64,000 nt of DNA from an uncultured Planctomycetaceae bacterium. Lineage in GTDB: Bacteria > Planctomycetota > Planctomycetia > Pirellulales > JAEUIK01. A program made the position numbers and the translations under genes. The stretch lies in assembly GCA_964495375.1 (NCBI GenBank), contig CAZBWM010000012.1, positions 11,323 through 75,322 of the forward strand. Direction: 5' to 3'. This document shows, one piece after another, positions 26,976 through 29,344 of this stretch. The notes beneath the pieces were generated by a model. It was not told where the DNA came from. It searched no databases and was given only the letters and a program-made list of their open reading frames with translations. Numbering within the stretch: position 1 is the first letter of the stretch; every line of letters starts with the position of its first letter.

Positions 26976-27230
26976 GTAGTGGCTAGTGCTCAGTGGTTAG
27001 TGGTTCGAGAACACCACTCCACTGCTCAACTGATATCCTGCTCACCTTCTCGCCGGCAGGGCGCACCCCTCTTCTATAAAGTGTTCCGGGATTTTGCGTC
27101 CTAACCGTCCTAAGCCCGACAAAACAGCACCTAAAGCCTTGCCAGGTTAGCACTTGACCTTAGGACGCAAAACCGAAAAAGCTTGCGTCCTAAACCGTCC
27201 TAAGAGGGCCGTTTTGCGTCCTAAGCCTGA
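26976..27230. repeat. intergenic element B: array of TTGCGTCC-TAA(G) repeats, paralogous to 17921-18215
   Basis: TTGCGTCCTAA 27094-27104 followed by CCGTCCTAAG 27105-27114. Inverted copy cttaggacgcaaaac 27159-27173. TTGCGTCCTAAA 27183-27194 followed by CCGTCCTAAG 27195-27204. gttttgcgtcctaag 27211-27225. ACTCCACTGCTC at 27016-27027. Confidence 0.7.
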
Positions 27231-27259
27231 ATCGCGAAGCCTTGGACGATGAAGATTTT

Positions 27260-27336
27260 GACCACGGATGACACCGATCGCACGGATGGTTGAATTCGTG
27301 TTCCGTTCATCCGTGTGATCCGTGACATCCATGGTC
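27260..27336. repeat. imperfect palindromic 'CACGGATG' hairpin element
   Basis: gaccacggatgacaccgatcgcacggatgg versus the reverse complement of ccgttcatccgtgtgatccgtgacatccatggtc. Arms are roughly 80% complementary. Confidence 0.5.
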
Positions 27337-27708
27337 AACGTGGTCTTGGTTTTTGATTCGCGCGGCGAGTCGTGCTTAGCGCTTGGTCATCGTGGTGTCG
27401 TTGTGGTGACTCTCGATGCGGCGCATGTTCTGGCGGCGCGCAAAATGCCAATGCATCCACAGAAGAACACGCCGAAGGACACAGAAGTTCGATCGGTGAT
27501 GCCGTTGGGCGTGGCCACGATCGTTCTGTGATCGTCTGCGCCTTCTGCTGATGTATTCTGTAATTGTTGGCGCGCACGGCGAGCGGGCTCGCGCCAAGCC
27601 GACCCCTTGAACGCATGCGTGCGTGGGCTCCTTGGTGGCAAGTATTTGATTGCAGTCCGCGGCGCGCACCGTATGCGCACGCGGAATTGACTCGCGTCCC
27701 CTTTCGTG

Positions 27709-27790
27709 CCGACGGTGTCAGGAACCACCTCCGACGACGTGCAAGGCACTGGATCGTCGTAGGCTCGGCGGTTCCAGACACCGATTCCGG
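27709..27790. repeat. degenerate 4th copy of the GGTGTCAGGAACCG palindromic element
   Basis: Left arm gccgacggtgtcaggaacca, right arm cggttccagacaccgattccgg. One stem mismatch (A where the other copies have T). Confidence 0.5.
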
Positions 27791-27930
27791 AGCGACTCGC
27801 GTGCCCGGCGCGCATCGCTGGTTTTCGCCGCGTAGCGGCGACGTCGACTTCGAGATCGCCGTGAACTCGCGACCACACAGCAGCGACAATGTCGCCACTG
27901 CGCGGCTTGGTCTTCGCTGAACGTCGAGTG

Positions 27931-27974
27931 TCCGTGGGTTTCACCCACGGCTAAACGCCGCGGCCGCTACGCGG
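27931..27974 (+). repeat. 44-nt CCGTGGGTTTCACCCACGGCTAA..GGCCGCTACGCGGC unit (left, inverted partner at 28576-28621)
   Basis: About 80% identical to the reverse complement of 28576-28621. Contains its own 7-bp hairpin ccgtggg/cccacgg. Confidence 0.6.
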
Positions 27975-28434
27975 CCAAGGACACACGACGATTTACGTCA
28001 GACCATGCGAGCGCGCACGGAAATCGCTTGCCGAAAGCCATCGCTCGACCTTTCGATCGCGCTGCTCCGGAGGAACCGGATTGCGGCGCATTCCTTGCGG
28101 AATTGCACACAATCGGGCACAAAGCTCAACGGGCCGCGATCGGGGCCGATCGGCAGTTTGCGGGCAAATGGCCGGGTCTATCGCCCAGGCCATACCAGCA
28201 TCCTAGGCGCCGGGTGGCTCAGTGTCAATATGTTTTGGAACACCTTTTTGTACATTATTCTCGGAGTTCGAGCCACGATGGGGGCTGGCAAAAACGCCAG
28301 GCTTTGCCCCAATGGCCGCGAGGCTCGCAAGAGATTTCGACAGCGGCCAGCGCAATCAGGCATCGCCCAACACGTTGCATCGACCAAGATCGGGCGGAGC
28401 CTGACTCCCGGCGGCAAACGTCTCGCAGAAAGAA

Positions 28435-28462
28435 GTCTCGCGCAAAGGCGCGAAGGCGCAGA
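28435..28462 (+). repeat. TCTCGCGCAAAGGCGCGAAGGCGCAGAG short repeat (second copy at 37663-37690)
   Basis: The two 28-nt copies differ at only 4 positions (tctcgcgcAaaggcgcGaaggcgcAGag versus tctcgcgcCaaggcgcTaaggcgcGAag). Confidence 0.55.
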
Positions 28463-28575
28463 GCAACGAGGCGGATCAGGATTTCCCGCCCGGCCATTTG
28501 CGGTTGCGGTTCGTCGAGCCCCAAAGGGGATCGGAACTTTCAGCCCAGCGGTTGTCACACAGCGACGATTGCATT

Positions 28576-28621
28576 CGCCGCGTAGCGGCCGAAAGAGCTT
28601 AGCCGTGGGGTGAACCCACGG
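28576..28621 (-). repeat. right inverted partner of the 27931-27974 unit
   Basis: gccgcgtagcggccgaaagagcttagccgtggggtgaacccacgg. A partial third copy ttcgccgcgtagcggcgac lies at 27824-27842. Confidence 0.6.
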
Positions 28622-28720
28622 AACCGTTCGCGAATAGGCGAACAAGCCGCGCAGCGGCGAGAGACAGTGTAGTCATCGCCCTCCGCGTGATGAATCTTCG
28701 TGGAGTGAGCTGAGCAAGAC

Positions 28721-28756
28721 GAGACCAGGGGCTGCGCCAGTGCGGCTATTGACGGT
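28721..28756 (+). repeat. GAGACCAGGGGCT..GGCTATTGACGGT 36-nt direct repeat, copy 1
   Basis: gagaccaggggctgcgccagtgcggctattgacggt versus 29063-29098 gagaccaggggcttccgccacctggctattaacggt. Confidence 0.6.
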
Positions 28757-28892
28757 TAGGGCGCCAGCCGTTTGAGAGCTTGGAACGTATATCGCTGCGC
28801 GGCTGGCGCGAACTGGCGGGGCAACGTCAACTCGCCCTCGCTGGCGCGTCGGGTTCGTGTTGGTGCGCCGCATCGCACGCGGGGCTGCGCCA

Positions 28893-28966
28893 GGGGAACG
28901 GGAGTCGTTTCCGGCCTGCGTCGTCGATGTGTTCTTGGTCGTCGCCCGGAAACGACTCCCGTCCCC
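28893..28966. repeat. GGGGA(A)CGGGAGTCGTTTCCGG long-stem hairpin element (family copy 1)
   Basis: Left arm 28893-28914 and right arm 28946-28966 are complementary over 21 bp with one bulged A. The loop is 31 nt. Confidence 0.7.
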
Positions 28967-29062
28967 TTCAGGCTTGCGGCGGCATCACGTGCCGCAACAT
29001 CGCTAGGCGCGTCAGGGCGGTTTTCTGTCGCCCCGGTTGGGGCTTGCGCTCGATTGCGCGAT

Positions 29063-29098
29063 GAGACCAGGGGCTTCCGCCACCTGGCTATTAACGGT
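29063..29098 (+). repeat. GAGACCAGGGGCT..GGCTATTAACGGT 36-nt direct repeat, copy 2
   Basis: See 28721-28756. Confidence 0.6.
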
Positions 29099-29137
29099 CA
29101 CGGCGTTGTCGTTCATGCAGATCAATAGCATTGCCGA

Positions 29138-29222
29138 GTCGCGCGCGAGGCAACGGCCCCCTCACCCCTAACCCCTCTCCCGCAAGGGGAGAGGGGAACC
29201 GGATGTTGCGTCGCGCGCGAGG
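29138..29222. mobile_element. candidate miniature insertion: 59-bp CCCTCACCC/GAGGGG hairpin element (family copy 3) flanked by a perfect 13-bp direct repeat
   Basis: gtcgcgcgcgagg occurs at 29138-29150 and again at 29210-29222. The enclosed 29151-29209 starts caacgg and ends ccggatgttgc (short terminal inverted match) and contains ccctcacccctaacccctctcccgcaaggggagaggggaac. Confidence 0.4.
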
Positions 29223-29226
29223 CCTA

Positions 29227-29298
29227 GGGGGACAGGAGTCCTTCCGGACGGCGCGAGAACAATGATCGATCTCCAACGTCGGAACGACTCCAGTCCCC
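29227..29298. repeat. GGGGACAGGAGTCCTTCCGG hairpin element (family copy 2, imperfect)
   Basis: Left arm gggggacaggagtccttccgg (29227-29247). Right arm tcggaacgactccagtcccc (29279-29298). Confidence 0.55.
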
Positions 29299-29344
29299 GC
29301 ACTGCTGGGCAAGCCAGCAGTGGCACCCGAGGCTAGCCGTTCTA

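Follow-up and report, generated by a model that had tools for sequence, protein, structure and literature searches.

The bacterial interspersed mosaic elements (BIMEs) of Escherichia coli, which are clusters of repetitive extragenic palindromes (REPs), and the neisserial intergenic mosaic elements (NIMEs), in which dRS3 repeats flank RS units, are mosaic clusters of extragenic palindromes. In satellite phage P4, octamer type I iterons are bound by the primase-helicase alpha protein of the phage. Di Nocera et al. (2013; PMC3733652) describe several REP families that coexist in the planctomycete R. baltica, mostly downstream of genes, and superfamilies tagged by GTAG or CGTC. The locus analyzed here is a noncoding segment of 2.4 kb from an uncultured Pirellulales bacterium, positions 26976-29344 of a stretch of 64,000 nt (the window) that is contained in the JGI metagenome contig Ga0310361_1164325, which is 114.6 kb long. 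Related contigs and loci are cited by L numbers.

The segment is very probably a lineage-specific mosaic of small dispersed hairpin repeats, a noncoding repeat sink at a rearrangement hotspot. It shows no coding signal, its repeat families are dispersed, one of these families has target duplications, close strains are structurally polymorphic at this site, and divergence is neutral. The mosaic would have been built by the insertion of non-autonomous mobile elements, either REP-like hairpin units or units resembling miniature inverted-repeat transposable elements (MITEs), and remodelled by local tandem duplication and by deletion or insertion between short direct repeats. Iteron-like array cassettes of ~170-260 nt with a conserved leader would have been exchanged, gained and lost. 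For the families other than the MITE, transposition or recombination is presumed. As a whole the segment would have no single function, with individual parts probably acting locally.

The segment thus appears to be a large planctomycete example of a known, BIME- or NIME-like kind of repeat cluster, and its families could not be assigned to a described one. Like a BIME, it is an extragenic mosaic of several palindromic repeat types in alternating orientation between convergent genes, it varies in copy number and composition by strain, and it contains hairpins of a kind that can terminate or stabilise mRNA. Many clustered extragenic copies, as in REPs and BIMEs, were found in the window, at loci L062-L094 and in a second cluster of the segment's families, a region of L070 (1715-2990) poor in open reading frames (ORFs) with two tandem arrays, an 87-nt unit and a CCCTC hairpin. 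In contrast to BIMEs, the units are 75-140 nt instead of 20-40 nt long, belong to other sequence families and form a far larger cluster (2.4 kb). No REP-associated tyrosine transposase (RAYT) was found in ~1.2 Mb of related DNA, and one family has target duplications of ~8 bp, which RAYT/IS200-type enzymes do not make. NIMEs are likewise large intergenic mosaics of short repeats, recombination hotspots and linked to phages, but their sequences are unrelated, and no phage integration was seen here. The GTAG/CGTC-tagged REPs, as far as the extract describes them, were compared by tags alone: our ~140-nt element ends in GGTAG...CTACC, and (C)GTC precedes one hairpin of the 87-nt unit in some copies, but the tags here end long nested palindromes and not short REPs of 20-40 nt.

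Composition and dispersal of the segment

Codon phases differ in GC by 0.30-0.44 in the flanking genes and by 0.03-0.13 across 27000-29100, which bears out an earlier note, made from the letters of the DNA, that had called these 2.4 kb ORF-poor. With 2.39 kb, the segment is the longest stretch of low periodicity in the 64 kb and twice as long as the next. The same note had considered a noncoding stretch of this length unusual, which is true only in part: codon periodicity is low over some 20% of the window, and this genome is thus not poor in long intergenic DNA. Further stretches of 0.8-1.2 kb without codon periodicity lie at 3891-5110, 39861-40900, 36261-37060 and 11871-12640.

Every short repeat that the note had listed was found where it had been placed, as was an AT-rich patch at 28225-28262. 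However, several of the repeats listed as separate families are pieces of larger units, namely a three-hairpin unit of 87 nt, a duplicated unit of ~335 nt and an array element of ~260 nt. Of the segment, at least 38% (911 of 2369 nt) has further copies, either internally or in 1.19 Mb of related DNA, and folding showed that its hairpins are far more stable than dinucleotide shuffles (z -3.1 to -7.2). In addition to the second cluster, L070 carries a second CCCTC hairpin at 309-435, and L074 carries one array and a long GGGGAC hairpin. A landing pad for miniature mobile elements, as the note had suggested, is supported by the copies that most of the listed repeats have in the window or in related genomes, by the target-site duplications of one family and by insertions and deletions of whole units between close relatives.

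The family with target duplications is that of the GGTGTCAGGAACC palindrome, and it is a true MITE with a target duplication of ~8 bp. It consists of nested palindromes of 128-143 nt that contain no ORF and have the outer terminal repeats GGTAGTGGGTCAGTC / GACTGACCCACTACC. Copies in the window lie at 36590-36700, 48836-48977 and 51335-51420; the copy at 48836-48977 is complete, with the outer repeats GGTAGTGGGTCAGTC and the inner repeats GGTGYCAGGAACCGATTCAAG, and the outer repeats are missing from the other two. When metagenomes were scanned with the palindrome, 33 loci (207 kb) of another sample set were recovered. In 9 of 16 complete copies, direct repeats of 6 nt or more (typically 7-9 nt) flank the element, compared with 3.7% of the mismatched flank pairings that served as a control; their positions are symmetric, 5-7 nt beyond the GGGTCAGT/ACTGACCC core. 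Together, terminal repeats and target duplications read as the signature of DDE-type transposition.

The family resembles MITEs such as the Correia elements of Neisseria in its length (130-143 nt), in the lack of an ORF, in its terminal inverted repeats and ~8-bp target duplication, and in its dozens of copies, including some inside operons, such as the L070 copy between trpB and trpA. It differs in that no autonomous partner was found (no pair of termini 1-3 kb apart occurs in the ~1.2 Mb of related DNA), and the signs of transposition are confined to the GGTGTCAGGAACC family. The copy in the segment (27709-27790, z -3.6) is a degenerate inner palindrome, GGTGTCAGGAACC ... GGTTCCAGACACC, of this ~140-nt family, flanked by the direct repeats GACTCGCGTSCCC. 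Because its outer terminal repeats are lost and it is conserved in relatives, it is an old relic.

Close relatives were reached in two ways, through a 202-aa ORF called in the segment (ENA contigs L158-L161) and through the ABC permease that ends at the left border (L162-L168, strains whose permease protein is 96-97% identical). In L006, with a permease of 88% amino-acid identity, the ortholog of the window gene at 34038-36338 comes ~1.1 kb after the permease, and in L016 (90%) an unrelated 1554-aa ORF follows it. Apart from the few bases that immediately follow the permease stop, and from one dispersed CCCTC-type hairpin in L006, the segment does not align in L006 or L016. This synteny indicates that 26976-34037, a stretch of 7 kb that includes the segment and four genes to its right, is lineage-specific and that the site is a rearrangement hotspot.

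The contigs L158-L161 are collinear with the segment and are 87-92% identical to it over 27392-27816, 80-84% over 28025-28660, 77% over 28714-28920 and 86-92% over 29209-29329. Compared with L163/L168, genes are 93-94% identical, their third codon positions 86-88.5% and the blocks of the segment 83-87%; calibrated in this way on two genes and one pair of lineages, the segment as a whole appears to diverge at roughly the neutral (synonymous-site) rate. The structural differences among L158-L168 are at the level of units. The 208 nt at 27817-28024 are absent in L158-L161, where 27816 is joined directly to 28025, and L158 lacks 28921-29208, which is about one copy of the tandem unit, leaving a single copy there (a difference of ~290-335 nt). 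Block C, the ~540 nt from 28025 to 28566, is apparently absent in L168, where 27437-27837 is joined to 28560-28602 at a junction 44 nt from the contig end.

Octamer arrays of the chromosome and of viral contigs

The left end of the segment is formed by an element of ~260 nt that reaches the permease stop codon and contains an array of the octamer TTGCGTCC. A unit scan and array alignment placed this iteron-like array at 27050-27235 on the minus strand, with the leader CTATAAAGTGTTCCGGGATTTTGCGTCC first. Its units TTGCGTCCTAA are at 27094, 27183 and 27214, an inverted unit is at 27163-27170, and the half-units CGTCCTAAG are at 27103-27114 and 27193-27204; the spacings are 9, 59, 21, 10 and 21 nt. 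The tail of the element (26976-27049, minus strand) abuts the permease stop codon and combines a (Y)AGTGG run (26977-27025), the only one of its kind in the window, with a conserved GGCGAGA..AGGTGAGCAGG stretch. It follows the permease stop in L163-L168 and is absent in L162, L006 and L016. The exact octamer occurs 10 times in the window compared with 3.7 expected, and 8 of the 10 occurrences fall in two clusters of ~150 nt. A second array, of the GGG type, is located between two Band_7 genes at 18040-18215; it has the leader and architecture of the array in the segment, and L006, L016 and L162 lack it in the orthologous spacer between the genes. Paralogous arrays were also found in L070 (two), L074 (one) and L158 (two).

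An alignment over ~300 nt covered five of these arrays, namely both window arrays, the L070 pair and the L074 array, and the two of L158 were compared by units only. The aligned arrays share a layout in which a distal cluster of 3-4 units, with an inverted unit at its end in three arrays, is followed by a spacer of 57-77 nt and then by a proximal half unit and a full unit. The leader AATAAAGTGTTCCGGGAWTTTGCGTCC and the tail accompany four of the five arrays, with L074 having neither. Within the clusters of the five chromosomal arrays, adjacent units are 9-11 or 19-23 nt apart, which corresponds to integral helical turns. The core GGACGCAA is invariant in all arrays compared, whereas the 2-3 bases at its side, mostly the same throughout one array, differ between arrays (TAA, GGG, CAA, CCG and CGA). 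At the orthologous site, strains with an identical permease protein carry either CCG and CGA arrays in tandem (L163, L166-L168) or the CGA array alone (L164); the window has the TAA type there, and L162, L006 and L016 have no array. Because the spacers are not alignable between types, whole arrays seem to have been exchanged and not mutated in place.

Three Logan contigs of the window's own strain (L003, L004 and L005), from independent short-read assemblies, all stop precisely where the leader meets the array (...GTGTTCCGGGATT), ~120 nt past the permease stop, which is consistent with branching of the assembly graph at a repeat or a population polymorphism. The contig of L162, which has no array there, likewise breaks off 126 nt past its permease stop. 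Heptad-like (Y)AGTGG / CCACTR runs were seen right after the permease stop in the window (26977-27025), upstream of a Band_7 gene in the relatives L006 (~2300-2350) and L016 (~2200-2240), and between the arrays of L158 (~190-240).

The TTGCGTCC array is most likely a double-stranded DNA site for the cooperative binding of a putative sequence-specific protein, as suggested by the helical phasing, the invariant 8-bp core and the array-specific flanking bases. Its short direct and inverted sites at helical-turn spacings, in two clusters with a spacer, are like iterons, for which the P4 sites offer a parallel, and so are its specificity-like flank differences; the octamer of viral contigs, described below, adjoins a D5-type primase-helicase. 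Unlike iterons, the chromosomal arrays have no adjacent replication gene and are multi-copy, tandemly stacked and placed inside a conserved leader/tail element. A candidate initiator or repressor gene next to the array was found only in the viral contigs; the arrays of the window, which lie after an ABC permease and before a Band_7 gene, have none. In the literature, the octamer turned up only in primer sequences, and the array element, with its leader, flank types, cassette turnover and phage-shared core, appears to have no described counterpart.

Other identities of the array were considered. A CRISPR array was rejected because the units are only 9-13 nt long, compared with 24-48 nt for CRISPR repeats, irregularly spaced and in both orientations, and because the architecture recurs between arrays. 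A sigma-54 or extracytoplasmic function (ECF) promoter for the array leader was dropped on inspection by eye, since the spacing is unfit and the motifs are not conserved. Transposon ends of the Tn7/Mu type and attP arm sites were set aside on the grounds that the window arrays are direct and of different type and that the tail continues past the array, and further that the viral arrays lie in a replication module with no integrase in the 14 kb examined. A CsrA-sponge RNA with GGA motifs was judged less likely than DNA binding, given the helical phasing and the inverted viral clusters of double-stranded DNA type.

A scan of IMG/VR for GGACGCAANNNGGACGCAAA returned 63 contigs (L095-L157), of which about 45 (GC content 45-60%) contain 9-12 GGACGCAA units in ~350 nt. 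The units form two inverted clusters around a spacer of ~90-105 nt, with phasing of 10-13, 20-21, 30-31 and 41 nt (for example, L100 10914-11265 and L096 1466-1817), and the two bases before the core vary by phage lineage (TC, GC). On one side the arrays adjoin the 3' end of a primase-helicase gene (PrimPol/D5_N/DUF5906) and on the other a small gene for a ribbon-helix-helix (RHH) protein, in a module that also holds a sliding clamp, helicases, RecT and an exonuclease. In its N-terminal part, the primase-helicase is similar to the PrimPol of cyanophage S-2L. These viral arrays are probably origin or operator iterons. Homologs of the primase-helicase and of the RHH protein were found neither in the window nor in related Planctomycete loci, and the chromosomal array leader GTGTTCCGGGANTTTGCGTCC does not occur in IMG/VR. 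Blastn of the segment against phages returned nothing, and against plasmids only the cross-phylum CCCTC hairpin.

The chromosomal arrays may be undescribed, gene-less and cassette-like iteron modules of Pirellulales that are cognate to DNA-binding proteins, replicative or regulatory, of uncultured and widespread PrimPol/D5-helicase phages and act as satellites or decoys, but we regard this as a long shot. Each flank type (TAA, GGG, CAA, CCG, CGA) would then match a different phage specificity, and the modules would be either minimal satellites replicated by a helper or decoys that titrate a phage initiator or repressor. If this were true, the swapping, gain and loss of arrays in near-identical strains would reflect a host-phage arms race.

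Coding, RNA and integration readings

The earlier note had also proposed a decayed gene or a structured RNA locus, and the analyses favoured neither. That the segment consists of one or more decayed protein-coding genes is very improbable. Its 2.4 kb would suit one or two genes, and a gene caller placed ORFs of 66 and 202 aa there; however, a six-frame Pfam search of the segment was empty at E<=1, no residual codon periodicity was detected anywhere in it, and the part identifiable as repeat amounts to at least 38%. Among 5.8 billion proteins, the 202-aa ORF (28005-28613) matched only itself and two partial ORFs, which lie on collinear DNA of relatives and are 72% and 56% identical in amino acids compared with 84% and 80% in DNA. 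As the amino-acid identity is below the DNA identity and the substitutions show no third-position excess and no codon-phase bias, the 202-aa ORF is not coding, and both called ORFs are spurious. A functional noncoding RNA, be it a small RNA from block C with the promoter-like site near the AT-rich patch as its driver or structured units such as the 87-nt element, is quite unlikely as well. It would fit the hairpins that are far more stable than shuffled controls, the TTTNGTACATTATT motif of block C that is invariant in three lineages, and a TTGACA-17-TAGGAT site and a conserved hairpin with a T-rich tail, both on the minus strand; single hairpins and a small transcript from block C may be exceptions. 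It would also fit the Acido-Lenti-1-like architecture (RF01687) of one three-hairpin unit, which matched at 28576-28621 on the minus strand with two hairpins, a linker starting GGCUAA and model positions 1-46 all aligned. However, this match scored 23 bits, below the gathering score of 37, the copy at 27931-27976 had no match to the model at E<=10, and the unit, which includes one more hairpin, shows the behaviour of a dispersed DNA repeat. No Rfam family reached its gathering score in the 64 kb, where a scan for tRNA and tmRNA also found none, and the permissive search added only chance-level hairpin matches of the microRNA type. Among four copies of the 87-nt unit, all differences fall in the loops and none in the stems, which gives no sign of covariation. 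For block C in three lineages, RNAalifold gave structures with many broken pairs and positive, that is penalising, covariation terms (0 and 5 compensatory among 66 and 92 pairs). Overall divergence at the synonymous rate and the apparent loss of block C from a close strain argue in the same direction.

Another explanation is that the segment, perhaps together with the genes at 29345-34037, is the scar of an integrated mobile element or phage-related replicon, in which the TTGCGTCC array would be what is left of an origin, operator or attachment region, and decayed cargo overgrown by repeats would make up the remainder. We consider this unlikely, although it is compatible with a repeat mosaic and both can hold. 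In its favor, all of 26976-34037 is missing in L006 and replaced in L016, the octamer, its phasing and its clustered syntax are common to the array and to those of the phage replication modules, and the arrays behave as cassettes that are gained and lost. However, the interval contains no integrase, replication, phage or conjugation gene, its genes being PQQ-like, PhnD-like and two unknowns, and the proteins beside the viral arrays have no counterparts in the window or in the Planctomycete loci. In addition, single arrays occur in ordinary intergenic DNA, at 18040-18215 of the window, upstream of trpB in L070 and in L074, and neither tRNA nor direct-repeat att boundaries were found.

Some observations also weigh against the segment being a mosaic of mobile repeats. 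Target-site duplications were found in only one family, whose copy in the segment is degenerate, and the ~1.2 Mb of related DNA yielded neither a transposase or RAYT gene nor any other gene for mobilisation. Block C, which makes up 23% of the segment, has no copy elsewhere in that DNA, and its invariant motif and its promoter-like and terminator-like pair on the minus strand fit such a mosaic less well. The calibration of the neutral rate is narrow, as given above. Finally, the link between chromosomal and phage arrays consists of an 8-nt core and the array syntax.

Hairpins, blocks and neighbouring genes

The array is followed by a long imperfect hairpin of CACGGATG(N) 9-mers (27258-27338, plus strand), whose arms at 27258-27288 and 27308-27338 are 87% complementary (dG -47.9, z -5.3). 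A short hairpin with the T-rich tail TTGGTTTTT then forms a terminator-like site (27329-27356, plus strand). The CACGGATG hairpin is found at the equivalent place in L158, L163 and L168 with ~83% identity. As the short hairpin and the TTGGTTTTT tail follow it and its position is retained in relatives, it is most likely the predicted terminator of the tad/ABC operon, and the best candidate for it; the inserted array element most likely placed this putative terminator ~290 nt away from the stop codon. In the Gemmataceae metagenome-assembled genome (MAG) L035, a perfect hairpin of tandem CACGGATG(N) 9-mers lies at 11118-11189, directly 3' of the permease ortholog, and the (CACGGATG)n hairpin type is therefore widespread in Planctomycetota.

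Block A (27392-27816) is collinear in relatives, with an identity of 87% to L158, 89-92% to L159-L161 and 83-86% to L163/L168. It holds the degenerate palindrome and a dispersed element of ~210 nt (27432-27638), of which a 74% copy is located at L086 787-989, downstream of an unrelated histidine-phosphatase gene. The next block, 208 nt at 27817-28024 (plus strand), has ATCGCT at both borders and contains the left 87-nt three-hairpin unit (27892-27978, plus strand). This unit is composed of GCCGC-TGC-GCGGC, then CCGTGGGT-loop-ACCCACGG-CTAA, and then GGCCGC-TAC-GCGGCC, and further copies lie at L070 2164-2251 and L158 1628-1716. Self-comparison and folding showed a second unit in inverted orientation (28574-28660, minus strand), so that two inverted units taken to be 44 nt long in the earlier note extend to ~87 nt (27892-27978 on the plus strand and 28660-28574 on the minus strand).

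Block C, between these units (28025-28566), is a strain-variable noncoding block that is 80-84% identical in L158-L161. The invariant TTTNGTACATTATT lies in its AT-rich patch (28225-28262), the sigma-70-like TTGACA-17-TAGGAT site at 28228-28200 on the minus strand, and the small conserved hairpin with the T-rich tail at 28454-28437, also on the minus strand. Short matches to the GCGCAAAGGCGCGAAGGCGC hairpin motif of 28437-28464 were seen at 12022-12038 and 37804-37827 of the window.

The right part of the segment consists of two diverged tandem copies of a ~335-nt unit (28718-~29040 and 29060-29344, plus strand), which were revealed by self-comparison. Each copy starts with GAGACCAGGGGCT..GGCTATTNACGGT and ends with a long GGGGAC...GTCCCC hairpin (28894-28966 and 29227-29298; z -7.2 and -3.1), and thus the GAGACCAGGGGCT direct repeats and the GGGGAC hairpins are the starts and ends of a tandem duplication. 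A copy of the GGGGAC hairpin is present at L074 6096-6172. The second unit also contains the hairpin CCCTCACCCC..GGGGAGAGGGG (CCCTCACCC) inside the outer arms TCGCGCGCGAGGC / GTCGCGCGCGA (29139-29220, z -5.0). Copies of this CCCTCACCC/CCCTC-type hairpin were found at 1957-1995 and 2755-2790 of the window and in L070 (two copies), L006, L008 and L047, and blastn found near-identical CCCTC hairpins many times on plasmids of Azospirillum, Cupriavidus and Leptolyngbya. The two window copies are CCCTCACCC..GGGAGAGGG hairpins of the type at 29157-29198 and stand on either side of a small nuclease-like gene. A small dispersed hairpin, CACTGCTGG-loop-CCAGCAGTG (29299-29328), closes the segment; it has 93-100% copies in L018, L073 and L094, and L162 carries a copy of 97% that was matched to the version of L158.

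On the left, the segment adjoins an operon on the plus strand with tadE/tadG-like genes and an ABC ATPase and permease. The ABC-2 permease stops at 26975, and its nearest named relatives are Pirellulales MAGs (88-90% amino-acid identity). The genes on the right are all on the minus strand and encode a 132-aa acidic protein, a PQQ-like beta-propeller, a PhnD-like binding protein and a 541-aa protein. The segment therefore lies between convergent transcription units. The four genes on the right (29345-34037) are missing in L006 between the permease and a Trx/AhpC-domain gene.

For annotation, these results mean that a long stretch with few ORFs in a Pirellulales MAG can be a repeat mosaic and is not necessarily a missed gene or RNA locus. 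The repeat mosaic also accounts for the breaks of several short-read assemblies at precisely this place. For a phylum with poorly described noncoding DNA, the segment adds a MITE family with ~8-bp target duplication, the 87-nt three-hairpin unit, the terminator-type (CACGGATG)n hairpin and the ~260-nt array element. If a phage or host protein binds the octamer array, the turnover of its cassettes would point to a new host-phage or regulatory interaction.

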